From Pseudomonadota bacterium (GTDB taxonomy: Bacteria; Pseudomonadota; Alphaproteobacteria; Paracaedibacterales; CAIOTO01), in NCBI GenBank assembly GCA_040387495.1, contig JAZKDQ010000014.1:73752-117332 (forward strand): a DNA stretch of 43,581 nucleotides. The letters are read 5' to 3'. This document shows, piece by piece, positions 1-25,700 of this stretch (within the stretch, counting starts at the first letter, position 1; every line of letters begins with the position of its first letter). The notes under the pieces were generated by a model. The model made no database searches and was not told the DNA's origin. It saw only the letters and a list, made by a program, of their open reading frames with translations. The translations under genes were made by a program, and so were the position numbers.

Positions 1-2357
1 AAGTCACCACCAAACCAGTGGAAAAGCGCAAAGTTTGCTTTGTTAATGCCATGCATATCACTGGTCACCACCATCGGCTGTATAATTGAAGTGTTGCCAT
101 ACCACAAGTCAAATGAAAAATAGCTTTCATGATCATGTGCGCCAATGAGCTCATTCATCAGTGGTACATGGTTTGATAAGAATGTGTATGCAACAACACC
201 GCGCCCTTTTTTAAAATACTTCTTGGAGTTTCTAGCTTTAGCTGTTGGTGTAAGTGCTTCGAACTTCTGACCATCTAAGCTCCCAAACAAAGTGTCTTCA
301 TCAAACGTGTAATGGGGAAAGATTGGCAACTGCGCAATTTTGTTTGCAATGATTACGTTTGCTTCTCTTAGTGTTAATAGGCGCATATACTGCTGATACG
401 TTGATTCAAGCTTGTGGTAAGGAATGTCACTAATCTTTGCCATTTTGTAATGGCCTATGTTGGAAGCGTTTGACATCAGCACCGCAATTAAATGATCCAC
501 ATCATATTTTTGTTTCACATAACGAGGTTGCAAAGGGGAAAAGGCTGACATAAAATTTGTTTGATGGTCAACAAAACGCAAGACTTCGCTTAGGTCGCGC
601 ATGGGAAGCTTGCTGTAGAGTGATTCTTGCTGCGCCTCTCGATTTTTTTTTGGTTTTATCCAGGTTATTTCTTCTTTGACAGGGTTATATTTAATGTGCT
701 TTAGGCTTCCTTGTTTAAGGCGCACATCGAATGTATTCCAAAGTGTATCAAGTTCTTTGAAAAGTAAATCAATTTGATCGACGCAAGGTGTTTTGAGCCA
801 AGGTATGTCCAAGGTTTTTAAGGCTTCTTCTTTACGTTCAAGAGAAACCAAATCTTCTGAAAAAGGCCTGTAACGTATGCTGTCTTTAATATGAATAACA
901 CCTGTGTCAATTTGCTCAATTAGTTGTCTGTAAACCTGTAATTCATAACGATTCATTAAATAAGTCGTTTCATCTTTATCATTATTTACCTGAATATATT
1001 TCTTAGTTGAGTTTGAAATAAAATCAATTGGAATTTCTTCCGTTTTTTGCTTTGTAAGTGCCTGTTTCTTTGAAAAGACATCCTGCATCCATTCAATTGC
1101 CTTAAGCAAAGGATTTTCTTCAAGACGACTTTCAAATTTAAGATTCATAAAAAGAGGCCTAAGATTGTACTTATAGCGAGCAGAAGCTTTATCCCGCTCT
1201 TTCCATTGCCTTTCGTGTTCTTGCACTTTCTTTTTAAGCATTTTATTAGCCAGAGCTTTAATTAATTCTTTAGGCAAAATAGCAAAGGCTTGTTTTCTAG
1301 GAATATCAAATGTTGTCGTATCACTTAATTTATCATCAACAAAGATAAGCATGAGCTTGGCAACTTGTTGGTCTCTATCATCTCTGTCATTATTTGCTTG
1401 CTCTTTGACGTTTGCCTTGATGTCAATTTCGAATCGTTTGGTGTTCACAATTAACGATGTCATAATATTGTCATTTATTTGCTGATAGCGTCTAAAAACA
1501 TAACATAAAAGATAAAGATAGGTTTTTTCATCATCAAAACGCTTTAAATCTCTGATTGTATAACGATGAACAAGGCTTGCGTAATAATTTATGTTATGCT
1601 GGGAAAGTGAAAGATGCGGAATGATCATCTTTGAAATGGGATAAAGCGATTTTAGGAGTTGATTCTTTTTTATTTCGACATTCATTTGCATAAAATTGAA
1701 ATTCTTTGCGTCTTGTTTAAGCGCAGCAAGCAGTGCAAGTGTTTCATCGTTGTTGATAAGTATTTGTAGTAATCTTTTATGATCGTCGGTTAAATATGTT
1801 TGAAGGCAAACTTTAATTCGCAAACGCTCAGAAACAAGCGCTTCGCCGACTACTGTTTGCAACGTTGTATAACCAGGCCTCACAATTTTCTGCTCTTTTA
1901 GAAAATGAAATACTTCTTGAAGAATGAATTTGGGTGTCGCATCTCGTTTTGCTATATCTTCAGCATACTTTTTTACTAATGGCAAATTTGCCTTTGTCCA
2001 CAAAGCATAACCAAAAAGATTTAGTATTTCATTTTGTTGAAATCGATATTCATGTTTTGTCACATTAAATTCAGACAATTCCTTATTTTCGAAATAACGC
2101 GTCAAAATAAAATGAATATCTTCTTTTTGGATTCTGCTTAGGGAAAATTTAAAGAACATTTTCTTTGCTTTGAAATAGCCAATTTGGATGGCGCAATAAA
2201 CTTGGGCATTAAATTCGCGGCATCTGCAAATCAGATCAATTTCTTCTCTGGTAAATGTGAAATACGTAGCACGTTGCTCATCATCAAAATCAGGGAGGCC
2301 GTAAAATGCAAATTCTTCGATTTCGGATAGTATGTTGAGTCGTTCACTCTTAGTCAT
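1..2357 (-). CDS. tnpA: Tn3-family transposase, 3' end truncated by the window edge (absent from the ORF track)
   Basis: Manual translation from ATG at 2357 (RBS GGAG upstream) gives MTKSERLNILSEIEEFAFYGLPDFDDEQRATYFTF, a DUF4158-like start. Near the window start it reads SLDGQKFE...KYFKKGRGVVAYT...IGAHDHESYF...TGDMHG, the Tn3 DDE-domain motifs. Confidence 0.92.
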   Translation of the reverse strand, partial: MTKSERLNILSEIEEFAFYGLPDFDDEQRATYFTFTREEIDLICRCREFNAQVYCAIQIGYFKAKKMFFKFSLSRIQKEDIHFILTRYFENKELSEFNVTKHEYRFQQNEILNLFGYALWTKANLPLVKKYAEDIAKRDATPKFILQEVFHFLKEQKIVRPGYTTLQTVVGEALVSERLRIKVCLQTYLTDDHKRLLQILINNDETLALLAALKQDAKNFNFMQMNVEIKKNQLLKSLYPISKMIIPHLSLSQHNINYYASLVHRYTIRDLKRFDDEKTYLYLLCYVFRRYQQINDNIMTSLIVNTKRFEIDIKANVKEQANNDRDDRDQQVAKLMLIFVDDKLSDTTTFDIPRKQAFAILPKELIKALANKMLKKKVQEHERQWKERDKASARYKYNLRPLFMNLKFESRLEENPLLKAIEWMQDVFSKKQALTKQKTEEIPIDFISNSTKKYIQVNNDKDETTYLMNRYELQVYRQLIEQIDTGVIHIKDSIRYRPFSEDLVSLERKEEALKTLDIPWLKTPCVDQIDLLFKELDTLWNTFDVRLKQGSLKHIKYNPVKEEITWIKPKKNREAQQESLYSKLPMRDLSEVLRFVDHQTNFMSAFSPLQPRYVKQKYDVDHLIAVLMSNASNIGHYKMAKISDIPYHKLESTYQQYMRLLTLREANVIIANKIAQLPIFPHYTFDEDTLFGSLDGQKFEALTPTAKARNSKKYFKKGRGVVAYTFLSNHVPLMNELIGAHDHESYFSFDLWYGNTSIIQPMVVTSDMHGINKANFALFHWFGGD

Positions 2358-2506
2358 AAAAGATACTCCTGTCATAAGTGTTATAACGCTCGTTTTATAA
2401 GTCCTTTTTATCTAGTCTAAAGGATCATTGTATGCCATTCTAATTATAGTGTGTTATGAGTTAAAAACGCCTTAACACCAAAGTTCGTCAAAAACAGGTA
2501 TTTTTT
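2358..2506. promoter_or_regulatory. Probable res site and divergent promoters of the transposon
   Basis: Lies between divergent tnpA and tnpR and contains short imperfect palindromes (e.g. GTGTTATAACGC). Subsites were not mapped. Confidence 0.55.
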
Positions 2507-3157
2507 ATGATTTATGGCTATGTTCGAGTGAGCAACCAAGACCAAAATGTCGAAAGCCAAAAAAATGTGATTAGCCGATATGGTGTTGATCATAAAATGA
2601 TGATCGATGAGTGGATTGAAGTTGAAATGTCATCGCGTAAATCAACACGTGATCGTCGGATTGATGAGTTGCTTGAAAAACTACAGCCGGGTGATGTTAT
2701 TATTGTATCCGAACTTTCACGTCTAGGAAGATCAATTAAGGAAACACTTAATACCATTGATAATCTCGTTCAAAACAAGAAAAACAGACTCATTTTAATT
2801 AAGCAAAATTTAGATATGAATCCTGGTAATATGAACAGCCTAACGAATAAAGTGCTGATCACTGTATTTTCGATGATTGCCGAGTTAGAGCGTGATTTTA
2901 TTTCAGAGCGTACAAAAGAAGGGCTTAACGCACGCAAAGCAAAAGGAATAAAACTCGGAAAGCCAAAAGGTATTTTACAGTCATCCATGTATGACCAAGA
3001 TGCCGATAAGATATTACACCTATATCAATTAGGTGTCCCCATTCGCAAAATTATTCAAACACACATCTGTTACGGAAAATACTCGTCACTTAAAGAATAC
3101 ATTGATAAACGTAAAAATATTTATTTACCATTAAATGAATCTCTTATCACTATCTAA
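2507..3157 (+). CDS. tnpR: Serine recombinase (resolvase)
   Basis: YGYVRVS (catalytic Ser), VSELSRLGRS, AELERDFISERTKEGL and GxKLGKP motifs. Confidence 0.93.
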   Translation: MIYGYVRVSNQDQNVESQKNVISRYGVDHKMMIDEWIEVEMSSRKSTRDRRIDELLEKLQPGDVIIVSELSRLGRSIKETLNTIDNLVQNKKNRLILIKQNLDMNPGNMNSLTNKVLITVFSMIAELERDFISERTKEGLNARKAKGIKLGKPKGILQSSMYDQDADKILHLYQLGVPIRKIIQTHICYGKYSSLKEYIDKRKNIYLPLNESLITI

Positions 3158-5658: not shown

Positions 5659-7128
5659 GTGACAAAATGTTTTTACGCGATTGTTTTTTTCATGCTCTTT
5701 GTAGTCAGCAATTCGACTGCTTTAGCACCTAACGCCAATAATGATAATGACAAAAAACTGATTGAGCCCTACTTTGACGAACGTTTTTATAAAGACAAAT
5801 ATAAAGAAGACCTTGAAAAAACGGGGCTAGCGGCGATTGATCACTTTATGCAATATGGTTGGCAAGGGAACTGGAAAACACATCGGGATCCTAATGGTTG
5901 GTTTAATATTACCTTATATAAGGATCGCTTATGGCCCTGCGCAGGAAACCCGTTTGTTGATTTTTTGAAACAACCAAAAAGCGATTTTTCTGATCCATTT
6001 AAACAAGTAGAAATTTTCGTCAAAGATTCAACCGAGCTTTATCGCGCGTGGATGGCTGCTGAAGGATTCTTGCGGCTTAAAAAATGCAACCCCGTTGTTC
6101 ATTTATCCCCTGCACGATTTCATAAAATTCCAGATTGCTTTGTACCAATGATTAATCGCGGCTTGGTCGTGCAATTAACAAACCTAAACGACGTCAGCTT
6201 TTACAAAAGTGATTTTATCAAAAACCCAGCTGTTTATGGAATTGATTTTGGACAAGACAGTCATGCAAACAGGCACATGTCAGTCAAAATTAACACTATT
6301 GATTACAAATACATCAAACATGACTTATATCAATATGAATGGATCAATTATTTTAAAGAGGGGCGAATCAACCCACTTGTCATCAATTTTGCGTATTTTA
6401 CCGACGAACCGTTACACTATTGTGATTTTGGGTCAACGACAAAAGAATATATTTCGTTTATGCAGCGTATTGCGCCTGGTTATGATGTGATCCATACAGG
6501 GCTTGAAATAGGTTCACCGAATGAAAAAATCATCCCGGGGTTTATGTACACGATGTATCTTAATGCTGGAGAAGGCGATATTCCAAGGACGAAAATACCA
6601 GGGGTTAGTTTTTTGCTCAGCTTAGGAATGGGCGGCGGCGATAAAAGCTATTTAGACAGTAAGCTTAGAAATTATCACATCCGAAAAAGTCTATGGGATC
6701 GTGAAAATGAAATCACAAGTCCACGCTTTTTTTATGTGTCGTTGCGTGATAAAGATAAATTCTCAGAAAGCTACCAAAGCCGTCTTTTGCCTACCGATTC
6801 AAAGAAATGGCTTTTCCAAAGTCAATATCACATTGTAATTGAAAACTGCAGGCAACGAAATTACATCACTGAAAAACTGCTGCACCCCTTTATTGCGCTG
6901 ACGGTTCCGATTTATATTGGGTGCCCAAATGTTTCAGATTATTTCGATGTGCGAGGCATGCTGATCGCTGAAAATATTGACGAGGTAATTAAACTTGCAA
7001 ATTCATTCACGCCTGAAAAATACAATGAAATGCTGCCTTATTTGGTGACCAATCAAAAGAAAGCGCATGAGATGCTAGGCATCAGAGATCGCTATGTTAA
7101 AGAGTTTTATGTGGGTAAGGTTGTGTGA
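5659..7128 (+). CDS. Glycosyltransferase family 10 (alpha-1,3-fucosyltransferase-like) with an N-terminal signal peptide
   Basis: C-terminal GT10 motif YHIVIENCRQRNYITEKLLHPFIALTVPIYIGCPNV. Also an FDxxFY...HFMQYGW...RDPNGWFNxxLY module of the kind seen in glycosyltransferases. Confidence 0.8.
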   Translation: MTKCFYAIVFFMLFVVSNSTALAPNANNDNDKKLIEPYFDERFYKDKYKEDLEKTGLAAIDHFMQYGWQGNWKTHRDPNGWFNITLYKDRLWPCAGNPFVDFLKQPKSDFSDPFKQVEIFVKDSTELYRAWMAAEGFLRLKKCNPVVHLSPARFHKIPDCFVPMINRGLVVQLTNLNDVSFYKSDFIKNPAVYGIDFGQDSHANRHMSVKINTIDYKYIKHDLYQYEWINYFKEGRINPLVINFAYFTDEPLHYCDFGSTTKEYISFMQRIAPGYDVIHTGLEIGSPNEKIIPGFMYTMYLNAGEGDIPRTKIPGVSFLLSLGMGGGDKSYLDSKLRNYHIRKSLWDRENEITSPRFFYVSLRDKDKFSESYQSRLLPTDSKKWLFQSQYHIVIENCRQRNYITEKLLHPFIALTVPIYIGCPNVSDYFDVRGMLIAENIDEVIKLANSFTPEKYNEMLPYLVTNQKKAHEMLGIRDRYVKEFYVGKVV

Positions 7129-8758: not shown

Positions 8759-9430
8759 TTATCTGTATTTTCTGACCTCATCACGAGAGTCATTTGTATT
8801 CATCTGATCGTTTTCCTTTTTCGTATACGACCATACAAACCCTGGGGGTATATTCATCCATAATCCTACCACACGTTCTTGGGTGTACGCACGTGAAAAG
8901 GCAAGTGGTGATTTTGGATTATACGTAACATGTATGATTTTTCCGCCAGGCTTAAGAACGCGAAAGGCGGCTTCGATAATAGCGGTACGTTTATCTTCTG
9001 CTAAGCACATCAATGGGACAGATGATACCACGGTTTCAACATTACCAACCCATGACGGAGGAATTAAATCAGACAAATAAGCTGCATCTCCTTCGATGAT
9101 TTTTGGCGCATCTGAAGCCAAACACAGCGCAGGCAATGTATCTTTTAAAAATGTGCATAGCTTTGAGTCTAGTTCAACAGCAGTTAATTGTGCTGATGGC
9201 ACCCCACGTTCAAGAAGGGCACGTGTTAAACGGCCTGTTCCTGCACCAATTTCAACAACATATCCATCCTTATTGAAAGCATATGAAGCAGCTACGCGTG
9301 CCAATTTGAGCGAGATCGGTGCTACCGTGCCCAGACGTCCAGGGTGTCTGATCCATTGCTTGAAGAACAGCTTGTTTTCAAGAGTGCGTAGCTCAGAATC
9401 ATAATGCTGATCAAAGGTATGTTGAAGCAT
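8759..9430 (-). CDS. pmtA: Phospholipid N-methyltransferase (PmtA-like), copy 1
   Basis: FFKQWIRHPGRLGTVAP, VVEIGAGTG, VSSVPL and NIPPGFVW motifs. Directly abuts copy 2. Confidence 0.82.
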   Translation of the reverse strand: MLQHTFDQHYDSELRTLENKLFFKQWIRHPGRLGTVAPISLKLARVAASYAFNKDGYVVEIGAGTGRLTRALLERGVPSAQLTAVELDSKLCTFLKDTLPALCLASDAPKIIEGDAAYLSDLIPPSWVGNVETVVSSVPLMCLAEDKRTAIIEAAFRVLKPGGKIIHVTYNPKSPLAFSRAYTQERVVGLWMNIPPGFVWSYTKKENDQMNTNDSRDEVRKYR

Positions 9431-10024
9431 ATCGCTTGTTCCTAGATTATAAAGGACCTATACCCACTCAAAATGACTTCGTGGATTTTTAACGTGATCT
9501 TTTAACCATCAAGCAGCACCTTTAAAGGCCCCAAATAGCGATACTATCTGTGGTTTTAAAGACTTTCTTTTAATCAAAATCTTTAACGTTTAAACTCAAC
9601 ACTTTCATCTATGATGGGTATAAAAAAATTAATATCTTTACGCTATCGTGATTTAAGCGTTTGTGCAAGGTGGAAGTTGAGCGGTAAGCAAAACCATAAG
9701 CCATATCTGATTTTATGCGCCCTGTTTTGCCTAGATTTTATCGAAGGGAAAAGATTCTAACCAACCTTAAACATCTCTATTATGTGAAAACTATTGTCAA
9801 ATTGTGGAATGCAAAAAGAAGTTACTGCAGAGAAAAGATAATAAAAGCCTTAGCAAAGTTTTGTGATAGTGAGATTATCATGTTCATGTGACCGTTCTAT
9901 ATTTCCTGACGTTTATGACTGCTGTTGCGCTTCACTGTTGAATCGGCGTTGCATAAAATTATCATTTTATTAACACTATAAATGTAACATGATGAATATA
10001 TAGTTTATTTTTATTGGTATTGAA

Positions 10025-11032
10025 ATGAATATTATGTTTTTTGTTAAATTTATTCTGATAGTTTTTGCATTTACGCAAAGCGGTTTCGCATATGATTCTG
10101 TGATTAAACACTATGACGAACGATGCATCGGTTATATTGAAAAAAGAAACATTGATACTTATACAGATTCTATTCATCAAACCTTATCAACAGAAGATCT
10201 AATTGACCCAAACCTCCACGATTTTGAGAAAAAGAAAAAAGTCATCCAGGCTGTTATGGCCTCTGTGATTATTCACCAGGGAAAGAAAAACTTATCAGGC
10301 AGACTTCCTCAACGAGTGATAAATTCCATTTTCGAAGATCACTTCAAGATTATAATTCTTACAGAAAAAATTTCATTGGGGATTGTTAAAGGTAGGTACG
10401 AGCCTGCAGATTTTCGATTGCTCAAAGAATATAGTGGGATTGAAAAAACCATATTCCTTGATTGGTTTATCGATACATGTCTCGAGCATCAAAGGCCAGA
10501 TCTAGTCCAAAGAATTGAGGAAAGGGAAGCAAGACAGAAAAACCTCCAAAATGAATTGATTCAATTGAGAGCAAAATTAGAAGAAATAAATGTTTTGGAA
10601 AGACAAATTGATAGAAACACTTTAGCCAGAAATCCTCACCACTATGATGGAAATATCCCAAGATGGGCAAATGAGCTTTGGGGCGCATTTGCGGCGTTAA
10701 ATCCCATCAACGTACCAAGCGCAAAAGCAGTTGAAGATAAAATAATGGCAGCAGCAAAAGATATTAATCAAGATGGGTTAATTGCCGAGCGCTATAAGAG
10801 TCTCAGAGGCGCTGGATTCGGCGTTGCTCAAAACCTTTTACAACAAATTGTTGGTTGGAATATTGAAACAGCCGATGGTGGTTATTACGTACCACTTACA
10901 TATGCACTAATACCCGCTGAGGGCTCAACAAATTCAGCAATGTACAACGCTTTTCTTTTTCCTGCAATAAGTACTGTGCAAAATTTATACCTAGAAAAAA
11001 TCCAAGAAATCGAACGTGAAATGCGAAGATAA
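10025..11032 (+). CDS. Secreted hypothetical protein; member 1 of the shared-N-domain family
   Basis: Signal peptide (…QSGFA), N-domain similar to those of 17256-18554 and 33339-34793, then a coiled coil. Confidence 0.8.
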   Translation: MNIMFFVKFILIVFAFTQSGFAYDSVIKHYDERCIGYIEKRNIDTYTDSIHQTLSTEDLIDPNLHDFEKKKKVIQAVMASVIIHQGKKNLSGRLPQRVINSIFEDHFKIIILTEKISLGIVKGRYEPADFRLLKEYSGIEKTIFLDWFIDTCLEHQRPDLVQRIEEREARQKNLQNELIQLRAKLEEINVLERQIDRNTLARNPHHYDGNIPRWANELWGAFAALNPINVPSAKAVEDKIMAAAKDINQDGLIAERYKSLRGAGFGVAQNLLQQIVGWNIETADGGYYVPLTYALIPAEGSTNSAMYNAFLFPAISTVQNLYLEKIQEIEREMRR

Positions 11033-11114
11033 ATCTGGAGGAAGTGCTTTCAGCATGGTGGCAAAAAGATCTGTCGTATATTTGTGGGCACAAAACACCC
11101 AGGCAATCTTAATT

Positions 11115-11142
11115 AAAAAACCCACAAGATTTCTCCCGTGGG
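11115..11142 (-). terminator. Rho-independent terminator of yccA
   Basis: Minus strand CCCACGGGA-GAAA-TCTTGTGGG followed by T6. Confidence 0.8.
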
Positions 11143-11191
11143 GCTTAGTGTTATTGTGTAGTAACCAAGTTGTTATGCGGCACAGTCAAAC

Positions 11192-11899
11192 TTACTTGCG
11201 ATCGCCAAAGATATGCAACAACGACACAAAAATGTTGATGAAATCAAGGTACAACGTTAATGCACCAAACACAGCTTTTTTACCAGCTATTTCTGTGTGA
11301 TCAGATTCTACATAGATTTCTTTGATTTTCTGTGTGTCATATGCTGTTAGGCCTGTGAAAATAATCACACTCAAAATAGAAATCAAAAGTTGCATTGCGC
11401 TGCTGTGCATAAACATATTCACAACACTTGCAAGAATTACGCCCCAAAGACCCATGATCATAAATGATCCCATGGATGTTAGGTCTTTCTTTGTTGTGTA
11501 CCCATAAAGGCTCATTGAACCAAATAGAGATGCTGTAATAAAGAAAACGCGAGCAATACTTTCACCGGTAAAGTGTGCAAGCATAAAGGATAGCGACACG
11601 CCCATCAATGCTGCATATACCCAAAAGAGCATTTGCGCAGTGGATGCTTCTATTTTATCCATACGAACGCTTAAAAACATTACAACACCAAAGGGTGCCA
11701 ACATGAAAAGCAAAGCGAAGGGCTTTAAGCTGCCTAATAGGTGAGGATTGGATGCGATAAGATACGCAATTACACCAGTTAACCCGATACCAAGTGCCAT
11801 GTAGTTATATACACGCAGCATGAATGTGCGCAGACCTTCGTCGATTGCGGAAACGGTCGTTCCATTGCGGAAAATTGGTTGATCATCAAAACGTGACAT
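11192..11899 (-). CDS. yccA: Bax inhibitor-1/YccA family membrane protein
   Basis: IDEGLRTFMLRVYNYM, YGYTTKKDLT, TAYDTQKIK and GALTLYLDFINIF motifs; about 7 TM segments. Confidence 0.93.
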   Translation of the reverse strand: MSRFDDQPIFRNGTTVSAIDEGLRTFMLRVYNYMALGIGLTGVIAYLIASNPHLLGSLKPFALLFMLAPFGVVMFLSVRMDKIEASTAQMLFWVYAALMGVSLSFMLAHFTGESIARVFFITASLFGSMSLYGYTTKKDLTSMGSFMIMGLWGVILASVVNMFMHSSAMQLLISILSVIIFTGLTAYDTQKIKEIYVESDHTEIAGKKAVFGALTLYLDFINIFVSLLHIFGDRK

Positions 11900-12125
11900 A
11901 AATAATTAGCTCCTGAGTCTGTTTTTCTCGATATCGTTATTCTAACCCGAAAATTATCGTTTGTCATGTTTTTCTTTTATACTAATAAAAAGAATATATT
12001 AGGTGTTTGTAGTAGTGGTGCTGTGAATAATGGGGATAACTTTGTTATTAACAGACTTATCCACATGATAACATAGGTTTAGACGGTGAGTTTACCTAAT
12101 GAGCTGGGTGGTTATCCACAGGGTG

Positions 12126-12233
12126 TGTATAAACAACCTTTCCCTGTGCATAAAAGAGGGGTTATACACAGGGGTAAAAAGTTGTTAACAGTTTGTTAAC
12201 CTTTCACGGATGTTATCCACAGGGTTATCCACA
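12126..12233 (+). repeat. Direct repeat copy A (right half of oriC)
   Basis: 108 bp, closely matched by 17127-17233. Confidence 0.92.
12185..12200 (+). promoter_or_regulatory. CtrA binding site within the oriC candidate
   Basis: TTAA-CAGTTTG-TTAAC is an exact match to the TTAA-N7-TTAAC consensus. Confidence 0.75.
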
Positions 12234-12248
12234 GGTTGCCTTGCTGTC

Positions 12249-15200
12249 TTAATGTAACCCTTGATTTTTACCCATATCAATAACCTTTGAATCAGAAGTA
12301 ACTGGGGCAATAGCGCCAATACCTGATTTCTTTCTCATCGCCAAAAGACGTTTTAAATATGGTGTTGCTCCGTTATCTTCGTCTATATGCTTTACCAGTT
12401 GATCCAACGTTAAACCAGTAGATGTTTTAAATTCAAGTAGCTCTTGGTTTTCTTCAACGATTTTTTTCAGCAACACTTCGTGTTTAAATAACAGGATAAA
12501 TCGAGGGTATGCATCATTATCATCATCCGCCCTAGCTAACTTTGAAATATTTGCCCGGGCCAATTTTTCAACAACATTTTCGGGAAAACATTGTAAACCG
12601 AGCGCTAAGAAGTCCTTACCAGGTGCTGTGTTGTTAAAGATAGAAAGTGCTTGATCAACAATAAGTTTTGTTAAATTTGGTGAGTTTGTGTCTGCCATGC
12701 ATAATAAACTTCTCATTTGATCTGCTGTCAGTTGATTTAACACATTCGCACAACCTGCCCATTTTAATACCGCCTCTGTTGCTTTTAACTGGAAAACAGG
12801 ACCATAAGTTGTGGGCATTAGGAGTGGTGGCGTGTTGTACCCACTAGCAGTATCACGTGCTTTTAAAACAACATCGGCCCTTGCCTTTAGTTGATATGGT
12901 AGATAGTAAAATGCACCCACCTTTTTGCTGTTATTGGATGGGTTCAAGGCAGCATATCGTTGATACGCTGGATCCATGCTTTTTAGTATTTGATCAAGGA
13001 TACGCGGAATAAAAAACACATTTTCATCTTTAAAAAGATCATTTATAAATTGTTGATCGAAAAGAGAGAAATCAATCGTTTCAATTTTAGACATAAATGT
13101 CGCAGGTGTTTTTTTAAACTCTTCTGTTAGTTTGTAGGCCAACGATGCTCTTTCGTTTTTAACTGTCTGTTTTGTATCTGATATTTTAAGGCGCCCATCA
13201 AGGTTGCCGTGTAGGTGTGGAACTATTCTTGTTATATCTGAGTAACAGTCACTATCAATAGCTCTGTTTAATTGGTCTTGTAATAATGGTTGTCTTTTTA
13301 TATTTGATGCAATTTTTTTATCAATAATATTTTTGTATTTTTTTGCAACAGAAAACGGAGGTGTTGGGTAAAAATAAGAAACAGATAAAGGCATTTTTTT
13401 TATGATGCGCCATGCTTTTTCTTTTGAGTCTACAATTCTTTTTAAATTGGAATACCATGTTTGTTCTTTTGTGGATCGTTTGCGTAATATTTTTTCCGGG
13501 ATGTGATCCTCATAATATGTCAACAAATCGCTTGATGGGCAATTTTCCAAGACATTTTTAATAATCGATGCGCGATTTGTTTGCAGCGCTGTTTCTAGTT
13601 GGGAAATCCACACTTGGGCGGCATCTGCAGAAAAAGGATTTTTGTACCATAGCCAAGAATTAACACTAGAGTTAATTTTATGTTTAAAAAAAGCATAAAA
13701 TTTGGGGTTAATGTGATCTTTTAATGAGCCACCTGTCTGTTTAATGTGTTTTTCAAGATAGTTGAAGAAACCAGGGGACATGGAGCGTCCTTTTTTGAAT
13801 TCAATCAAGGCATGATTAAGCACACTTAAACCATTAGCGTTGTGAATGCTTAAAAAATCATTTTGAAATGAAAAGTCAGACTCTTGAAGATTCTGTAGAT
13901 ATGGTAGCTCAAACAAAAAAGGATTTCCGGTGTCGGGGTTTTCCGTTTGAAGGTCTAGCCCACTTTTAAAGAGATGGAGAATGTGTTGTTGCATCCATGT
14001 TTTTGTTGGATTTTCTTTTAAAAAACTAAGAAAAAGACTTGCAAATTTTGCAAGGGTTACAAGTTGGCGTTTTGTGGCTGCTTTTATGCACTCTCCCCAC
14101 TTGTCTAAAGAGCGATCAACCGACACTATGGTTTCTTTAATGTCTTCTTCTGTATAAGACCAAATAGACCTGTTTATCAGCTTAACGGCATAGTCATCGC
14201 CGGTTTTTAAAATGGTGCGCCCTATCTTTTGTTTTATCTTATCAGAGACACCAGAAAAGTCGTAATGTTTTAAAATATATCTAAACGAGGATTTAAGTTC
14301 TTCATCCACTCCCGTTGTTATTTTTGTTAATACACTTTCGATACTTAGTATGTCATTTAATTTTTTATTATTTGGATCTTTATGAATAATTTCTGTTACT
14401 ACATATTTTGTGACAGTATAGCTACCACTGGCCAATGCTGCATTACAAAGTGTTACTGGATCAATGGATTGCACCAAATCTGGACATGTTTCCACCAATG
14501 TTTTAAGGGCCTCGATATGACCAAAACGTGCCAAATGTAAGAGGCTGTGTGTGTTTGGTACATCTTCATGTGTATTTCCTGTGACGCCTTTAAAAACCAT
14601 TTTGTACAAATCGCGTGCAGCAGGGGCTTCCATTAAGCTTCCTGGGATAAGCGCTGTTCGTTGAGAAAACCAATACCCTAAGTTAGCGGCAGTTGTTTTG
14701 GAAAGTTCCTTTTCGAAACGTTTCTTTTTCTCGGGGGTGAGTGGAAAAAAATCCAAACCATGCATTTTAAGTTGAGATTCATCATCGGCAAGCGATGGGT
14801 GGAGTGATAAACGCACTTCCCCATAAAGGCCTGTTTTTTTTCTGGTTTCTTCTGTACGTGTTGAGTCGATTTTTCCATCTGCTGTTTTTGGTTCAAAGTC
14901 TTCTTTGCCTGCTTGTGCAACGCGTTCATATTCAGCTTGTGCATTTTGATAAGCAGTTAGAGCTACTTTTTCATCCATATAATCGGTCGCACCATACTCG
15001 GTCAGTGCATCAGGCTTGATAAATAGTTGCAGCAACATTGCGTTACCATAAGGTGTGCCTGTATCGGCAATAAATTGTTGAAATAACGATTCATAGGGGG
15101 CGTAGCTTAAATCCATCCCTAAAAGCGCCGTTCCCTCTTCAAATCGTTTGGAAACATTTGGATCTGCAACACTGTGATTGTTTCCCCAATATTCAACGGA

Positions 15201-16865
15201 TGAGGACGTTGATCTGGATGTTGCGCGCCCTGCAGTAAGTACAAAGTTTCCAAAAATACGACGATCGCGATTACCATTATCATAATGGCTATCACCATTT
15301 CGTGTGGCATCATCGATCATGTTTGTAAGATCACGGAAATAAAGATCGGTATAACGAAGACGTGTTAATCGATCTGTTTGACTTAAGGTTAGATGGTTAT
15401 GCAAGCTTGATGCAATACGGAATGCGTGACCATTCTCATCGTTTGTGCCGTGATAAATTGGGTAAAAACCTGTCTTTTCCCACTCCGTCCGTTCTGAATC
15501 CATTACATCGGCGAGACGCTCAATATAGCGTTCATCAATAACAAGCTCGCGTTTGAATTCGCCTTTTCCATCAGCGATTTTGTTTTTGTATTCCATGCTG
15601 TTGTATGTATAAAAGTATTTTCTTAAGTTGGTAATGTTGGCTGAACGGTGTGGACTTGCTTGGCTTGCATGCTGTGGGTCTTTGGGTTCCGCGTATTCTT
15701 TCTCTAAGACCAGCATAAGGTGCCCTTCGGTCATGGTGTATCGGCCGTGCACAGTCTCAATTTTAGGACGCAAAGAATGCACAGTAAATTTTTCTGTTTT
15801 ATCTAAAATAATAGGAGAATTAAGGGCAGCCATACGCTTTTTCTCAGCCTCTGACTTAAGTTCTATTGTCACGCGTTGACGAAAGGCCTCGGTGTACGCA
15901 AATTCTTTTTCTTCGTGTGCAGTAAACTGAACTTTTTCGTAAGCATTTGGAACAATCTTCATTTTATCAAGGTTGTGACCAAGCTTCTTTAGTTTTTTAA
16001 TGAGTTTGAGTTCTTCTTTGGCCTCAGCTGCATTATTGTTCGCTCTCTTCTGCGCCCTTGCAGCTATTGCCAGAGAGTTGTGTGCCAAATTATCCCGTGG
16101 GGAAACTTTACCATTATCATGATTTGTGTAATCTTCTTCCCTTACGTAACTTGCCTTTTGCGGCGCGCCTAATGGAATAGGCCGCTTACCTTGCGCTAAT
16201 TGTTCTAACATATGCCGATAAAACGGCGTTGATAGCATGTCGTACAGTGGTCCATAAAGTGTAACCTCTTCAAGGTCGTCTGTTTTAACGTTTACTTTTC
16301 CGTTTTTAACCGCACCTAATAAATCTTCTACATTAAATGTTTTAAAGCGCCTGTATTCTTTGCTGTGTCCATCGGTGGCATCGGCAAGTTTTTTGTCAAA
16401 TCTTTCCGCTGAAACATATTTAGTTTCATAAAAATACATACGATACAGTTGGGATTTTTCAGCCAAATACAAATCCGCAAAAGGTGCCCGTAACAAAAGA
16501 TGTGGGTGCGTAGCGAATATGTTAAATGATTCTTCGGCAGCTTCACGGCCCGCTGTTACATGAAGTGTTCCATCATCTGGATCTGATTTGCCACCAAAGT
16601 TACAAAAACCATCATCATCATCGCGCTGTCCCAGGATAACCTTGTAATTATTATGCTTGTCGCGCATATAATACAACACGCCAGCGGCTGTATGCTGTGC
16701 ATCAGCCTTAAAAAATCTGGTTGTTTGTTGTGGCTTGGTTCCGGTCGTTGATACGAAAGATTCAACCTCGGTGAATTCTTTTAATACAGCATAAGCAGAG
16801 GTGCACACGGCTTGATTGAAAACGCACGTCAGCAATAAGGAAGAAGTAAATTTCTTAAGGTTCAT
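12249..16865 (-). CDS. Large secreted multidomain effector-like protein: NUDIX hydrolase, putative ART-like region, ankyrin-like/helical repeats
   Basis: Signal peptide (…TSAYA); Nudix box GGKSDPDDGTLHVTAGREAAEESF at aa ~91-114; YHGT at aa ~471; ankyrin-like LLHLARFGHIEALKTLVE and NANGLSVLNHAL. Confidence 0.85.
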   Translation of the reverse strand: MNLKKFTSSLLLTCVFNQAVCTSAYAVLKEFTEVESFVSTTGTKPQQTTRFFKADAQHTAAGVLYYMRDKHNNYKVILGQRDDDDGFCNFGGKSDPDDGTLHVTAGREAAEESFNIFATHPHLLLRAPFADLYLAEKSQLYRMYFYETKYVSAERFDKKLADATDGHSKEYRRFKTFNVEDLLGAVKNGKVNVKTDDLEEVTLYGPLYDMLSTPFYRHMLEQLAQGKRPIPLGAPQKASYVREEDYTNHDNGKVSPRDNLAHNSLAIAARAQKRANNNAAEAKEELKLIKKLKKLGHNLDKMKIVPNAYEKVQFTAHEEKEFAYTEAFRQRVTIELKSEAEKKRMAALNSPIILDKTEKFTVHSLRPKIETVHGRYTMTEGHLMLVLEKEYAEPKDPQHASQASPHRSANITNLRKYFYTYNSMEYKNKIADGKGEFKRELVIDERYIERLADVMDSERTEWEKTGFYPIYHGTNDENGHAFRIASSLHNHLTLSQTDRLTRLRYTDLYFRDLTNMIDDATRNGDSHYDNGNRDRRIFGNFVLTAGRATSRSTSSSVEYWGNNHSVADPNVSKRFEEGTALLGMDLSYAPYESLFQQFIADTGTPYGNAMLLQLFIKPDALTEYGATDYMDEKVALTAYQNAQAEYERVAQAGKEDFEPKTADGKIDSTRTEETRKKTGLYGEVRLSLHPSLADDESQLKMHGLDFFPLTPEKKKRFEKELSKTTAANLGYWFSQRTALIPGSLMEAPAARDLYKMVFKGVTGNTHEDVPNTHSLLHLARFGHIEALKTLVETCPDLVQSIDPVTLCNAALASGSYTVTKYVVTEIIHKDPNNKKLNDILSIESVLTKITTGVDEELKSSFRYILKHYDFSGVSDKIKQKIGRTILKTGDDYAVKLINRSIWSYTEEDIKETIVSVDRSLDKWGECIKAATKRQLVTLAKFASLFLSFLKENPTKTWMQQHILHLFKSGLDLQTENPDTGNPFLFELPYLQNLQESDFSFQNDFLSIHNANGLSVLNHALIEFKKGRSMSPGFFNYLEKHIKQTGGSLKDHINPKFYAFFKHKINSSVNSWLWYKNPFSADAAQVWISQLETALQTNRASIIKNVLENCPSSDLLTYYEDHIPEKILRKRSTKEQTWYSNLKRIVDSKEKAWRIIKKMPLSVSYFYPTPPFSVAKKYKNIIDKKIASNIKRQPLLQDQLNRAIDSDCYSDITRIVPHLHGNLDGRLKISDTKQTVKNERASLAYKLTEEFKKTPATFMSKIETIDFSLFDQQFINDLFKDENVFFIPRILDQILKSMDPAYQRYAALNPSNNSKKVGAFYYLPYQLKARADVVLKARDTASGYNTPPLLMPTTYGPVFQLKATEAVLKWAGCANVLNQLTADQMRSLLCMADTNSPNLTKLIVDQALSIFNNTAPGKDFLALGLQCFPENVVEKLARANISKLARADDDNDAYPRFILLFKHEVLLKKIVEENQELLEFKTSTGLTLDQLVKHIDEDNGATPYLKRLLAMRKKSGIGAIAPVTSDSKVIDMGKNQGLH

Positions 16866-17126
16866 ATCAGTCTCTGCAAAAAAATAAAAATTTCAAATAA
16901 AAATAAAACAACAATAGTTGCAATGTTTATTAATTAGAATTTTATATTTATATTTTCAACAGTAATCTGATGGATTGGTTTTTTATTCAAAATTTATTGA
17001 TTTTTATCAGAAAAGAGCGAATTAAGTACGCATTGGTTTGTAGCTGTTCAACTATAAATTGATGAAGGCAGAGACACACCGAAAGCATCACTGTTCACAT
17101 AACGTCAGGGAGAGAATCTGCTTTTT

Positions 17127-17233
17127 TGTATAAACAACATTTCCCTGTGCATAAAAGGGGGGTTATACACAGGGGTAAAAAGTTGTTAACAGTTGTTAAT
17201 CTTTTACACACACTATCCACAGGGTTATTCACA
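17127..17233 (+). repeat. Direct repeat copy B (decayed copy of the oriC right half)
   Basis: The first ~65 bp are nearly identical to copy A. The CtrA spacer is shortened to N6 and the two terminal boxes are changed to CTATCCACA and TTATTCACA. Confidence 0.92.
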
Positions 17234-17255
17234 AAGCTGGCGCCGTGCTTTGATG

Positions 17256-18554
17256 TTATATAGTCGCATGTTGGCTAAATAAAAGGTTACCTGCTGTGAA
17301 TAAGTATGACATTAAACTATTATCCACCTTCTTCTTCTCCTTGGCTTTTGGTGATCCCTGCCAACCAGGAGAAGTTGTCTCTGTAACAACCCAATTATCT
17401 TGATTATCGTTAACCTCGTTTTCACCATTCTCATCTTTTTGTTTATAACAAGCCGAATCGGGAGATGAGCATGCTGATACGCTTTCTATGTTGACGTCGG
17501 GGCTTGTTAGTTTTGGTTTGGTCGAAGTGTTCTCTGTTTGATTGTTCGATAAAGAAATCGATTCAAAATCTTCATCATCATCTTCTTTGTCGCTATTATC
17601 CCCATCACTTTCCTCCTCTTGTTCTCTATCAAGGAAGCCTGCTGTTGAGCTGGATTCATCAGATACAGACCCCGTTGAGGAGGTTGGTTTATTGTTGTCA
17701 TCAAGATCTTCTGGTGTTGTGTGGGAAGAATCAAAGCTCGCTTCATCACAATTAATGGTGTTAAAATACCCATCTCCTAAACTCACATCTTTCTTTACTC
17801 TACTTTGTGTATCAAGCCTTGGAGTTGAATATCGAGGAGAGTGGAGTGTAGAAGCTCGTTTCTTTGGTGTGGTGAAGTCGCTATCCGGTTCGTTTTTTGA
17901 TAGCTGAAGAGGGCTGCGCTGGTTGACTTTTTTTGCGATTGCCGTGTTTACAATCTGCTCATTTAAGGTTTTTTTGGCAAACACAGTATTATCAAGAATG
18001 TTAATTGCTTGTCGTTTAGTAAGACCATCGTTGTGTTCAGAAAGAGCCTCGTTAAACCAAAGAGAAAACATATCTTGTGTGATTTGGCCAAATTCATCAA
18101 GTTCTTTGTGGTCGTTCCACTGATTCGATAACAATTCACGATCAATGGTTTTATTGCCATCTTTGTCTAATAACCCCCTTGCTAATTTATCCGAAAGCGC
18201 CTCTGTTTGTTCTAGAATTTTAAAATGTTTATAATTTTTGTCTTTTTTATCCAGTTTCTTAAACGATAACCTGTATTGTTCTGGGTTTTTATGAACAAAA
18301 AATTTGGCCATAGTTGTTTTAATGATCAATTTTTTTTGATCAAATGTTGCCTGAACATTTGAAACTTTGTCGTAATCGGAAAGTAATTTATTAGAATTTT
18401 CAGTGTGTTGAGCAAATAATTCTTCTCTGTTTGGGTTCGCGTTAAATTTTCCACGGCGATATTTGTTTTCATCCTCAAGATATTCACATGAAAAGCTTTG
18501 CATCGAAATAAAAAATGTAAAAAGTATGCTTTTGCAATAAGATCTGACTTTCAT
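17256..18554 (-). CDS. Secreted hypothetical protein; member 2 of the shared-N-domain family, with an acidic disordered C-terminal half
   Basis: Signal peptide (…MQSFS), shared N-domain, and a D/E/S-rich tail. The ATG at 18554 follows a GAGG RBS. Confidence 0.8.
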   Translation of the reverse strand: MKVRSYCKSILFTFFISMQSFSCEYLEDENKYRRGKFNANPNREELFAQHTENSNKLLSDYDKVSNVQATFDQKKLIIKTTMAKFFVHKNPEQYRLSFKKLDKKDKNYKHFKILEQTEALSDKLARGLLDKDGNKTIDRELLSNQWNDHKELDEFGQITQDMFSLWFNEALSEHNDGLTKRQAINILDNTVFAKKTLNEQIVNTAIAKKVNQRSPLQLSKNEPDSDFTTPKKRASTLHSPRYSTPRLDTQSRVKKDVSLGDGYFNTINCDEASFDSSHTTPEDLDDNNKPTSSTGSVSDESSSTAGFLDREQEEESDGDNSDKEDDDEDFESISLSNNQTENTSTKPKLTSPDVNIESVSACSSPDSACYKQKDENGENEVNDNQDNWVVTETTSPGWQGSPKAKEKKKVDNSLMSYLFTAGNLLFSQHATI

Positions 18555-19026
18555 TTTGATCACCTCGTTTGTAATGTTTTGTTTACATTGTAACGTTTAA
18601 TTCATACTGGCTTTTTAAACAGAAAAAAACGTAATTTGAATCACAGTTTTATGTATAAATCGGAACTACTTAATTAAAATATTCATTGTCTTACCATTAA
18701 CAATATACCGACTTATTTTTACTCTTCGTCTAATTGATAAAGATATAGCACGTTTTTAGTTTTAATTTTAATTGAATTCCATATCAAGATTCTCCAGCCA
18801 GAGACATTAATGCTATGGCGGGGTGTGTAAATCTTGCTTCGCAGTGGTTTTTTAAATCACTCTTTTGACGTGATCTTTTGTATGGAGTGTTGGCACGGCA
18901 GAGCGGTATACAGCTGAGGTGTTGCTGGAATGTGTAGAGCAGAGCTGGCGATGGTTGATAATAAAAATTTAGGATGTCGATTCTCATCAAACATCCTAAG
19001 GTATCTACGTTATTATGAACAAAATT

Positions 19027-20172
19027 CTAAGCATCTGAATCATCATCAGATGTATCGCTGTATGGGTCGCCTTCACTTTCGCTGTCTCCGCCAAATACTT
19101 CTAGCAACTCTTGGTGAATGTCTTCACGCTTAGAATGCTTTGCTTGATCTCCACCACGTAATTTGCGAATGACTCTTTTTGTTGCTTTGCCGCGATGATC
19201 TTCGCTTGGGGCTCCCTCGAAAGCGGAATAAGTACCAAAGGAATATTCGGAAGAATGCTTGCTTGGTGCATGAAAGAAATCTTGTAGTGATAATTCTTTC
19301 TGTTTTTCTTGTAGGGAAAGCTTTAATGCGCCCACAATCGCACATGCAACAGGAACGTTATCAAGTACGTTTCGATCCTAATTCATGAAGTTTATTTTCC
19401 ATTTTTCATGGCCTAGATTCTGAGCGCGCTGGGTATTACGTGCTTTGCTTTGAGCAATATCATCATGAAATGCTGGATTTAATGGATTATTAACAATATT
19501 GGAATCTTGAAGGCGTCGTGCAACCTCAAAATCTAAAAGCACATTCAATCTTTCTAAATCTACAATTTCCCCTTCATGTGAAAGTCTGGGATAACGAATT
19601 GAGTAATGATATGAGCCATCATCCTTTTTGCGTGCTTTTAAAAGTTTTTTAGCTATTTTTTTTTGATATGATGTCTTGTATATATCTAAAACAGGATGTA
19701 TTTCTCTGTGCATTCCTATTCCCGCAACAATACCATTACCGGGTTGTCGTAAAATTGGAGTTAACTTAATATTAAATTCCTTCTCGTTAAGCAAAAACGG
19801 AATCGCTTGATCTTCACCCTTTACAGCCGCTGTTAACTCACGAAATAGAAAAATACGTGAACGTGAAGATAATCCATCAAGACTAATTCGTGTAAGGGCA
19901 TTTCTAGCCTGAAGTTCTGTTTTGAATTGTTGTACGGCAGCGCGAACGACTGGCTTTGTGGACAACCTTTTGAAAAATCTATTATTCACTCCTTGATGCC
20001 GAGTGTATTCTACATCAGTATCATATTCTTCTTCTATTTCTGCCTTTTCTTGTGCGACAATCTTTAATACCGCTCCAATATCGTTTAGATCATCTAGGCC
20101 TTTATTTCCTGCATGTAATAAATGCAATTGTGAAATTATAACAACCGTAGATAAAACTATTTTTACAATCAT
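19027..20172 (-). pseudogene. Secreted hypothetical protein interrupted by one in-frame TAG (19378-19380)
   Basis: ORFs 19378-20172 and 19027-19335 share a frame; the read-through is …KINFMN*DRNVLDNVPVACAIVGALK…. Confidence 0.7.
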
Positions 20173-20409
20173 TTTATTGTTTCTTTCCTTTGAATACTAA
20201 TATTTTGTAACGTCATTTCCATGCAAAACATACTTATCTGAAAATGACATTTGCCATAATGCTTTCAATCATTAGCAAAGCATAATAAAAAATGTATTAT
20301 TGCCAAAAAATGCCAGTGGAGTTTAACTGTGGTTTCTAAAAGATAAATCACGAAAATAGTGGTACATTAGGGCAATTATGCATATATATATATAAAATAA
20401 CGAAAAAAA

Positions 20410-21912
20410 ATGGCTCCAATGAATCAAGCTAAAAAAGACGCCAAATTCACGCACTTGCGTGCAACATTTTGGCCCAGCCATTCACATGAAATAAAGAAAT
20501 TTGTTTCGCTATCGTTGATCATGTTTGGGCTTCTCTTTATCTACACCATTGCGCGCGATACAAAAGATACGCTCGTCATTAATGCCGTTGGTGTGCATAT
20601 TATCCCTTTTTTGCAAGGGGCAGCGCTGACAATAGCTGGGTTTTTGTTTGTTCTGGTGTACGCAAAACTGTCTAATATGTTTTCGCGTGAGAAATTGTTC
20701 TACATTATTATCACGCCTTTTTTGTTCTATTACGCCTTTTTTGGGTTTGTGATTCATCCTAACAACGAGTGGTTCCACCCTGCAAAAGAAACCATCGCTG
20801 CACTGAATGCCTCATTCCCCGCTCTGTCGGGTTTTATTGATATATATGCGTGCTGGTCGTATTCACTGTTTTATATTCTAACCGAAATATGGGGCAATGC
20901 GATGATCGGCCTCATGTTTTGGGAATTTGCAAACCATATTGTTCTTCTTGATGAATCAAAGCGATTTTATGGATTGTTTGCCGTTATTGCCAATGTTGCA
21001 TTGATTATATCGGGTTATTTTGTGTATTTTTGCTCGAACACGATTCAGTCTTTCTTACCGCAGGGAAAAGACGCATGGACAATCTCGATGTATCTTTTGA
21101 TGGGCAGTATTCTTTTGATGGGTGTTTTTGTTATTAGCGTTTTTCGTTGGATGCACATTCATATATTACATAACGGTGACGCGGATGGCTTCTCCGTAGA
21201 AAAAGTTAAAGCACAGCCATCCCAGAAAAAATCACTTCTCCAAAGTGCCTGGGTTGTTGTGACTTCACATGAGATTTTGTTGATTCTTATCCTTGTCTTG
21301 TCCTATTCCATTGCGGTTAACGTGCTCGAAATGCAGTGGAAGCATCAGCTCAATCTATTTTGCCAGGGTAATAGTGGAATCTATAACGGATACATGGGGT
21401 TGTATTCGTCTATCACAGGTGTTTTTACGATTCTTTGTGGCGTGTTCATTAGTGCGCGCTTGCTGCACAGTGGCACGTGGTTTCGAGCGGCGATCATTAC
21501 GCCGGCACTATTTTTAATCATCGGTGGATTGTATTTCATTCATATAGTTAATCCAAACTTGATTGGGTTTATTTTAAGTAAGTTTTCTGTGTCGCCGCTT
21601 GCATTTGCTGCAGCGGCAGGTGGAGTGGTTGTTCTTATTTTAAAATCAATGAAATACACATTGTTTGACCCCACAAAAGAAATGGCTTATATCCCATTGA
21701 GTGAAGAGCTGCGCACAAAAGGAAAAGCGGCTGTTGATGTGCTGGGCAGCAATTTAGGCGAATCCGGTAGTGGGTATATTCACATTATTTTGTTTAGCGT
21801 GATGGTAACGAAAGATGTGCTGATTATTGCACCGTATGCATGCGCGATTTTTCTGGCTGTGTGCTTGGTGTGGCTAATGGCCGTTAAAGTTATGGCAGAT
21901 AAGATTGCGTGA
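20410..21912 (+). CDS. NTT/TLC-family nucleotide transporter (ATP/ADP translocase family)
   Basis: YTIARDTKD, FWEFAN, KRFYGLF, KYTLFDPTKEMAYIPL and KGKAAVDV motifs; about 12 TM segments. Confidence 0.93.
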   Translation: MAPMNQAKKDAKFTHLRATFWPSHSHEIKKFVSLSLIMFGLLFIYTIARDTKDTLVINAVGVHIIPFLQGAALTIAGFLFVLVYAKLSNMFSREKLFYIIITPFLFYYAFFGFVIHPNNEWFHPAKETIAALNASFPALSGFIDIYACWSYSLFYILTEIWGNAMIGLMFWEFANHIVLLDESKRFYGLFAVIANVALIISGYFVYFCSNTIQSFLPQGKDAWTISMYLLMGSILLMGVFVISVFRWMHIHILHNGDADGFSVEKVKAQPSQKKSLLQSAWVVVTSHEILLILILVLSYSIAVNVLEMQWKHQLNLFCQGNSGIYNGYMGLYSSITGVFTILCGVFISARLLHSGTWFRAAIITPALFLIIGGLYFIHIVNPNLIGFILSKFSVSPLAFAAAAGGVVVLILKSMKYTLFDPTKEMAYIPLSEELRTKGKAAVDVLGSNLGESGSGYIHIILFSVMVTKDVLIIAPYACAIFLAVCLVWLMAVKVMADKIA

Positions 21913-22789: not shown

Positions 22790-22867
22790 TATGCATGCGC
22801 GATTTTTCTGGCTGTGTGCTTGGTGTGGCTAATGGCCGTTAAAGTTATGGCAGATAAGATTGCGTGA
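22790..22867 (+). repeat. Exact 78-bp copy of the ntt 3' end (21835-21912), including the stop codon
   Basis: Base-by-base identity. Confidence 0.96.
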
Positions 22868-25505: not shown

Positions 25506-25700
25506 AAAGGAAAAGCGGCTGTTGATGTGCTGGGCAGCAATTTAGGCGAATCGGGTAATGGGTATATTCACATTATTTTGTTTAGCGTGATGGTAACGAA
25601 AGATGTGCTGATTATTGCACCGTATGCATGCGCGATTTTTCTGGCTGTTTGCTTGGTGTGGCTAATGGCCGTTAAAGTTATGGCGCGAAAGATTGTATAG
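25506..25700 (+). repeat. 195-bp diverged copy of the ntt 3' end (21718-21912)
   Basis: Colinear, with few substitutions until the last codons. Encodes …VMARKIV* versus …VMADKIA*, with the stop at the same position. Confidence 0.96.

Follow-up and report, generated by a model that had tools for sequence, protein, structure and literature searches.

Replication origins of Alphaproteobacteria, such as Caulobacter Cori, combine DnaA boxes with CtrA sites. Clusters of DnaA boxes are also found outside origins, among them datA, DARS1 and DARS2 of Escherichia coli and the clusters of Bacillus subtilis, and there are organisms in which two DnaA-box regions flank a gene and form a bipartite origin. 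In Mycobacterium bovis BCG a tandem duplication covers the chromosomal origin, oriC. In Campbell-type integration, a single crossover leaves the insert between two direct copies of the homologous segment. Two origins are described for Pseudomonas aeruginosa and predicted in Halomonadaceae (bioRxiv 10.1101/2025.08.05.668638). Additive displacement of cassettes at a conserved anchor is described for the type VI effector-immunity arrays of Vibrio cholerae and for the orphan ends of Rhs and contact-dependent inhibition (CDI) loci, and homology-facilitated illegitimate recombination is proposed there as its cause (PMC5361080). The stretch analysed here (the window; 43,581 nt, positions 73,752 to 117,332 of contig JAZKDQ010000014.1, GenBank assembly GCA_040387495.1) belongs to an uncultured intracellular-type alphaproteobacterium. 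In this window the right part of the predicted oriC occurs a second time 5 kb away, and the two copies bracket a single large gene for a putatively exported protein of 1538 aa.

Recombination scars of this kind are known; what is unusual here is the target. As in the Vibrio type VI and Rhs/CDI arrays, the anchor is intact, a single-gene cassette is added adjacent to it, older material is shifted distally together with a stub of the anchor, and the process is recurrent at several loci. It differs from these arrays in having non-coding origin DNA as its anchor and a cargo other than a toxin-immunity pair, and it shows no donor or intermediate. With Campbell-type integration it shares direct repeats of the target that flank the insert and could recombine to remove it, but the genome shows no circular form, plasmid backbone or integrase, and the repeats are 108 nt long and 10% diverged. 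An origin sequence present more than once per chromosome is likewise common to P. aeruginosa, Halomonadaceae and BCG; these carry complete origins or large segmental duplications, whereas only the right 38% of the origin is duplicated here. Among the matches listed for the literature on oriC duplication and insertion, a partial origin copy as an insertion scar was not described.

The predicted origin and its partial copy

The window lies on C14, a 117-kb contig of the assembly under study (G000, 1.66 Mb). Copy A (12126-12233, 108 nt) and copy B (17127-17233, 107 nt) align in direct orientation with 89.8% identity over 108 columns (BLASTN within the whole assembly; 10 mismatches, 1 gap, E = 7e-35) and with a start-to-start spacing of 5001 nt. 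The longest identical run measures 34 nt (12158-12191), and the repeat search splits the pair into 12126-12204 / 17127-17205 and 12193-12233 / 17193-17233, with a 1-base offset between the two pairs. Both searches confirm the recurrence 5001 bp away that an earlier note on this DNA had read from the letters. The gene ends that it had placed 15-22 bp from the copies are also found there: 15 nt separate the end of the 1538-aa open reading frame from copy A, and 22 nt that of a 435-aa frame (432 aa from the first ATG) from copy B. No third copy exists in the 1.66-Mb assembly, in which the remaining BLASTN matches reach at most 57 nt. The two units of origin half plus effector gene that had been counted reduce to a single bracketed unit, as no further copy lies past the 435-aa gene.

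The block 11950-12233 (Table 1) is predicted with high confidence to be an oriC of the alphaproteobacterial, DnaA-dependent type, because a cluster of DnaA boxes, a nearby GC-skew minimum, a CtrA box in a genome that encodes ctrA, and conservation beside a Bax1-I-family gene coincide. The window contains 40 DnaA boxes with at most one mismatch (13.3 expected), and the block is the highest-scoring 300-nt DnaA-box window genome-wide (score 13; next clusters 7 or less). The cumulative GC skew of C14 has its minimum at about 80 kb, equivalent to about 6-12 kb of the window, and rises afterwards; a smaller local dip near dnaA on contig C3 is accompanied by no DnaA-box cluster. The ctrA gene is recognised by NF045991 with 389.6 bits (cut-off 350), and dnaA and hemE lie on contigs other than C14. 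In Rfam searches of window positions 9000-21000 nothing credible was found, the single match being to mir-96 with E = 0.085, far under the gathering score. Like Caulobacter Cori, the block combines DnaA boxes with a TTAA-N7-TTAAC site in a genome with ctrA; it differs from Cori in its position beside a Bax1-I-family gene instead of hemE and in the single full CtrA site seen.

The repeat comprises the right 108 of the 284 nt (38%) of the origin, i.e. four boxes and the CtrA site, and leaves out the left boxes and the AT-rich tract. Copy A contains perfect TTATCCACA boxes at 12213 and 12225. Two further DnaA-like boxes of the repeat stand head to head; transcribed with the converging gene, they would fold into a hairpin of 12 bp and could, at a guess, act as its terminator.

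The junctions were compared with k-mer contigs (k = 31) assembled independently from a public run, X1, possibly from the source sample. These contigs break solely at the core shared by the two copies: one ends at 12187 (depth 12.8), one spans 12164-17188 (depth 11.9) and one begins at 17165 (depth 11.2), with the 36-nt core unitig at depth 22. A 151-nt contig of run X5, from another sample, corresponds to 17113-17263 with five mismatches and ties copy B to both unique flanks; taken at its sequence, it places copy B with both flanks in a related strain. An assembly artefact, which the earlier note had allowed for, is unlikely, given that the depth of the unit equals that of its flanks, the core is about twice as deep, and the X5 contig spans copy B. 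A 12233/17233 deletion joint was found in none of the contigs of four runs (window 9000-21000), contigs being prone to drop rare variants.

The origin flank in related genomes

The origin block adjoins the Bax1-I-family gene in five congeners (G001, G002, G003, G004 and G005) and on the metagenome contig L134. Its identity to the block of the window is 81% in G001 and G003 (about 280 nt), 70% in G005, 67% in G004 and 77%, in part of the block, in G002, and the DnaA boxes and the CtrA site align across the relatives. A second copy of the repeat of at least 60 nt was found in none of 40 related genomes, all of them other species and some incomplete (the congener G006, 75% complete, gave no match at all); additional matches measure 19-53 nt and mostly represent the double DnaA box. 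An exact 32-nt pattern common to both copies has no match in metagenome contigs, and a degenerate 29-nt pattern has one, on L134, which derives from a G003-like relative with a single copy. A contig search with the Bax1-I-family protein recovered 80 loci, all of distant alphaproteobacteria (48-62% identity) and none of close relatives. The earlier note had set an insertion against a bipartite origin conserved across the family; with the second copy in 0 of 40 relatives, this comparison points to a lineage-specific insertion.

Homology of G001, G003 and L134 to the window halts at 12232-12235, which is the right end of the repeat. Beyond this point five different neighbours are found among seven sequences: the 1538-aa gene in G000, a multi-copy repeat (19 matches, at least 12 of them at contig ends) in G001, a PolyA_pol-family gene in G002, a GNAT acetyltransferase gene on L134, which in G003 comes after an additional 0.8 kb and is followed by hemC, and another gene in G004 and G005. 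The multi-copy repeat of G001 (L045, G001:C229 1-117), probably the end of an insertion sequence, abuts the origin exactly where homology to the window stops. In G000 a single stretch of contig C7 (17755-24086, L149) holds the PolyA_pol, GNAT and hemC genes, so that this lineage no longer has the ancestral right flank beside its origin. The 435-aa gene was probably the right neighbour of the origin before the insertion. Across the genus, this edge of the origin is a hot spot of rearrangement. The PolyA_pol, GNAT and hemC group on C7 directly adjoins two tandem copies of a DnaA-box element described below. The idea that one inversion joined this element and the origin's right end was considered and rejected, as the orientation of PolyA_pol relative to the element does not fit.

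Decay of the distal copy

Copy B has an N6 spacer with TTAAT in its CtrA site, and CTATCCACA and TTATTCACA at the positions of the perfect boxes. The differences between the copies were polarised with three outgroups (G001, G003 and L134), and the numbers are small: 7 of 11 are derived in copy B, and 4 of those 7 fall into the CtrA site or the DnaA boxes, namely the spacer deletion, the change from TTAAC to TTAAT and one change in each formerly perfect box. The other four are derived in copy A, all within 12205-12211, the spacer between CtrA site and double box. This substitution pattern fits constraint on copy A and relaxation on copy B. The claim of a decayed distal copy, with the CtrA spacer shortened from N7 to N6 and both perfect boxes mutated, is supported. 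Against all outgroups, copies A and B have further derived states in common, e.g. TTATACACA where the relatives have TTATCCACA, and are therefore sister copies made within the G000 lineage.

Like copy B, datA, DARS1, DARS2 and the B. subtilis clusters are DnaA-box or DnaA-box-like clusters a few kb outside an origin. They hold high-affinity boxes and are conserved, whereas copy B has no perfect box, is restricted to one lineage and is losing its motifs. A titration of DnaA in the manner of datA or DARS, suggested earlier for the spare copy, is disfavoured by the lack of a perfect box and of conservation in the 40 relatives. A CtrA-box promoter for the 1538-aa gene was likewise discarded, as 16866-17126 contains no TTAA-N7-TTAA. 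Recombination between the copies, with their 34 identical nucleotides, could in principle excise the unit; excision as a circle and a gene-dosage benefit of the position are speculation.

A maintained candidate for comparison is present in the same genus. An element of about 230 nt, with three copies on contig C7 of G000 (Table 1), occurs in one to four copies per genome in five of six congeners (G001-G005; not found in G006). Its four DnaA boxes (one left, two tandem, one inverted) are accompanied by the half-site TTAACA, the motif TTGACA and a hairpin in which changes compensate each other. Boxes are perfect in 11/11, 9/11 and 11/11 aligned copies, and box columns are conserved to 97% against 76% elsewhere. 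One copy lies upstream of tRNA-Val(GAC) in G000, G001 and G003. The right ~45 nt of the element resemble the right end of oriC. Rfam searches of the C7 elements gave no match except to the neighbouring tRNA. The element is a candidate for an extra-origin DnaA control site or a DnaA-regulated promoter, and in its sequence copy B is unlike this maintained type of site.

The bracketed gene and the neighbouring gene

The 1538-aa protein is encoded in a single copy in G000. Neither this nor the 435-aa protein has a sequence match in Pfam, NCBIfam or the Protein Data Bank, and the former has no direct Pfam match even at E = 1. Among 11 homologues of the 1538-aa protein, NUDIX (PF00293) is recognised in 5 and ankyrin repeats in 2. 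In BLASTP, a 1580-aa protein of Legionella matches residues 48-211 with its NUDIX region (E = 2e-19). Atlas leads for the protein (ankyrin, NUDT12-like) score 0.81-0.87, under the trusted level. A VirB4-type ATPase was not found in G000, and one secretin gene is present. The protein is a fair candidate, by its predicted features, for an exported factor of host interaction. The term effector, used in the earlier note, is unproven for this protein with its signal-peptide-like segment and NUDIX-like domain. Another assembly encodes, on a 23-kb contig, an 851-aa protein (P0005) that matches residues 362-1181 with 87% identity before the two sequences part; it probably represents a copy, truncated or frameshifted, from a closer relative.

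The 261-nt region upstream of the gene aligns neither to the left part of the origin nor to the region upstream of the G001 orthologue. No recombinase gene was recognised in the segment (Pfam and NCBIfam, 1538-aa protein), and it is 9.7 kb to the nearest transposase (Tn3 family, window 3-2375). This transposase gene, cut by the window edge, is accompanied by a resolvase gene (both within window 3-3157), 9 kb to the left of the origin. The N-terminal ~180 aa of the 435-aa protein belong to a multi-copy signal-peptide family with 8 matches in G000 and 14 in G003. Members include window 17256-18563, window 33339-34793 and C7 24091-26736, and no Pfam family corresponds to it.

Probable related insertions at other loci

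The orthologue of the 1538-aa gene in G001 (C114, L041; 55-61% identity, 55% over the full length in BLASTP), its closest homologue among the congeners, is located elsewhere, with an EAL-domain gene (orthologue of window gene 28901-29941) on one side and an outer-membrane barrel gene (orthologue of window gene 30157-30840) on the other. These two genes are adjacent in G000 and G004, where the site is empty. Direct copies of 110 nt from the tail of the EAL gene lie on either side of the G001 gene (6599-6708 / 11600-11709, 96% identical), again with a start-to-start spacing of 5001 nt, and the distal copy is continuous with the ancestral downstream sequence. The architecture is that of G000, i.e. 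an intact anchor, about 270 nt plus gene plus about 16 nt, and a displaced anchor stub; relative to the anchor the cassette has the opposite orientation to that of G000. The parts of the two cassettes (G000/G001) measure 108/110 nt for the repeat, 15/17 nt after the stop codon, 4617/4596 nt for the gene and 261/278 nt upstream, and the upstream regions, identical in 141 of 303 columns, do not align. A second paralogue in G001 (C58) has no flanking repeat of at least 30 nt. Flanking repeats are therefore found at two of the three complete cargo loci examined, those of G003 and G009 being cut by contig ends.

Repeat-flanked genes are not confined to this family. A self-BLAST of G000 (pairs of 40-350 nt with an identity of at least 75% and a distance of 0.3-12 kb) revealed 49 direct and 6 inverted pairs of local repeats, with lengths of 47-324 nt. 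In the window itself, the last 78-190 nt of a gene for an ATP/ADP transporter (TLC) occur three times (Table 1), which suggests two rounds of additive insertion at a single anchor. Of the proposal that oriC served as a homology anchor, the additive insertion stands; a special role of the origin does not, as the same repeat-flanked insertions are seen at ordinary gene ends in the window, the genome and G001.

Table 1. Features of the window and of contig C7 (last row); a dot marks features given no strand
Feature	Position	Strand	Remarks
Bax1-I / YccA-family membrane protein gene	11192-11899	-	Left neighbour of the origin; Pfam PF01027, E = 9e-64
Predicted oriC block	11950-12233	.	Nine DnaA boxes with at most one mismatch (four perfect) within 12022-12233
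AT-rich tract, possible unwinding element (inferred)	11960-12003	.	Read from the sequence; aligned and conserved in G001 and G003
Copy A	12126-12233	.	Right 108 nt of the origin, intact, continuous with the remaining origin
Head-to-head DnaA-like boxes, hairpin of 12 bp in the converging-gene transcript	12142-12173	-	Equivalent in copy B: 17143-17174
CtrA-type box TTAA-N7-TTAAC	12185-12200	+	Kept in the alignments of G001, G003, G005 and L134
1538-aa cargo gene	12249-16865	-	N-terminal signal-peptide-like segment; NUDIX-like domain at about residues 48-211
AT-rich region upstream of the cargo gene, 261 nt	16866-17126	-	Part of the inserted segment 12234-17126
Copy B	17127-17233	.	Displaced, decaying duplicate; four one-mismatch DnaA boxes, none perfect; CtrA box broken
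435-aa signal-peptide protein gene	17256-18563	-	432 aa from the first ATG
TLC tail, intact	21718-21912		Ends at 21912
TLC tail copy, 78 nt	22790-22867		100% identical; after a Gp49/HigA-like (toxin-antitoxin-like) pair
TLC tail copy, 190 nt	25506-25695 (entry to 25700)		96% identical; after three further genes
DnaA-box element copies, about 230 nt	C7: 5793-6004, 16877-17117, 17342-17582		Loci L135 and L149

Origin of the arrangement

The bracketed unit is probably the scar of an additive insertion specific to this lineage, and the edge of the origin would be just another site hit by a process common in this genome. The reading builds on direct observation of the repeat, its lineage restriction, the polarity of decay, the other location of the gene in relatives and the recurring architecture. 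A segment of 4.89 kb (12234-17126) would have been added exactly at the right edge of the origin, in the G000 lineage only, bringing the gene of a large exported NUDIX-like protein with 261 nt of upstream DNA and duplicating the last 108 nt of the origin. Copy A would have stayed joined to the origin with its predicted binding sites, while copy B, pushed 5 kb off to lie beside the former neighbour gene, would have decayed. The most likely route is recombination with one homologous anchor and one illegitimate joint, or the single-crossover integration of a circular piece. In a one-sided variant of the homologous exchange the other end would join illegitimately to the sister chromosome, and template switching during replication would be an alternative route to the same product. 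We infer this mechanism and cannot choose between these routes; recA is present in G000.

Several observations weigh against this reading. The junctions show no clear microhomology or donor signal, and neither an empty-site allele nor a donor was found. The comparison is with other species, whose origins are about 81% identical to this one and whose own origin flanks have been rearranged. The 49 direct repeat pairs include some tandem paralogues and intragenic repeats, and the ratio of 49 to 6 overstates the number of scars. In copy B the head-to-head box pair is without derived change in its stems, which could mean residual function, although we estimate from the 6.5% divergence derived in B that 24 bases would stay unchanged in about one case out of five. 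The shared 5001-nt period of the G000 and G001 cassettes and their near-equal duplicates (108 and 110 nt) could mean a defined mechanism; the equal period is probably a coincidence, because the lengths of the components differ and repeat lengths across the genome range from 47 to 324 nt.

This last observation is the strength of an alternative in which the 4.89-kb segment is a discrete mobile unit that duplicates about 110 nt of any target in either orientation. The same gene family would then have entered two independent sites in two species, the edge of oriC in G000 and the EAL tail in G001, with matching duplicates, period, 15/17 nt after the stop codon and 261/278 nt upstream. Such a unit is unlikely: the segment has neither a recombinase nor a Pfam domain, the ends of the G000 and G001 segments do not align (141/303 upstream), the third complete locus, G001:C58, has no flanking repeat of at least 30 nt, and the other scars of the genome have repeats of 47-324 nt with unrelated cargo. 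A broader version, which we also regard as doubtful, supposes that the lineage runs a dedicated process of cassette insertion without a visible recombinase, copying tens to hundreds of bases of the target, with the 1538-aa family as a repeated passenger and a displaced piece that may keep a weak DnaA or terminator role; if true, single secreted-protein genes could be added in essential gene ends or in the origin without destroying the target. The direct copies, each 15-22 nt from a gene end, might also have arisen by tandem duplication of the right part of the origin with its neighbour gene, followed by replacement of one gene copy. This is very unlikely, since the two gene bodies are not alike beyond chance (longest repeat 24 nt at 79%), two events are needed where one suffices, and no relative was found with two paralogous genes in both positions.

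The remaining alternatives concern the present state of copy B. It may be a working DnaA site, perhaps also a CtrA site, outside the origin, serving titration or recycling in the manner of datA and DARS or tying expression of the 1538-aa gene to the cell cycle. By DnaA-box score (6), copy B takes sixth place among the windows of the genome; it keeps its head-to-head pair unaltered save in the loop, is positioned upstream of the 1538-aa gene, and belongs to a genus that does maintain DnaA-box elements outside the origin. That it works is nevertheless improbable, with none of four boxes perfect, a broken CtrA site (N6, TTAAT), four of seven B-derived changes at motif positions and no counterpart in 40 relatives, whereas the maintained elements of the genus keep their boxes perfect in nearly all aligned copies (11/11, 9/11, 11/11). 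A bipartite origin with both clusters required for initiation would account for two DnaA-box clusters 5 kb apart with a gene between them. We regard it as effectively refuted, as the first cluster is conserved in five congeners and the second was found in none of the 40 relatives and has neither perfect boxes nor the left part and AT-rich tract. The unit might, finally, not be integrated at all, the origin being joined directly to the 435-aa gene and a 5001-nt circle threaded in by the assembler; the break of the k = 31 graph of X1 at the shared core, taken alone, fits both paths. This is extremely unlikely, given a depth of 11.9 against 12.8 and 11.2 in the flanks and 22 in the core, the X5 contig that links the left part of copy B and its flank to the right part and its flank, and differences on either side of the core by which ordinary reads can phase the copies.

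Implications

On the reading as an additive insertion scar, the edge of a bacterial origin can gain genes without loss of the origin, since the insertion regenerates an intact target and the old piece remains beside it. The finding does not show a new element of replication control. A naturally inactivated origin fragment beside its working twin amounts to a small natural experiment on constrained positions, in which changes of the working copy avoid the DnaA and CtrA sites and changes of the fossil copy strike them. The origin flank thereby joins the list of rearrangement hot spots in the genus, and the locus points to frequent repeat-flanked gene addition in a reduced symbiont genome.

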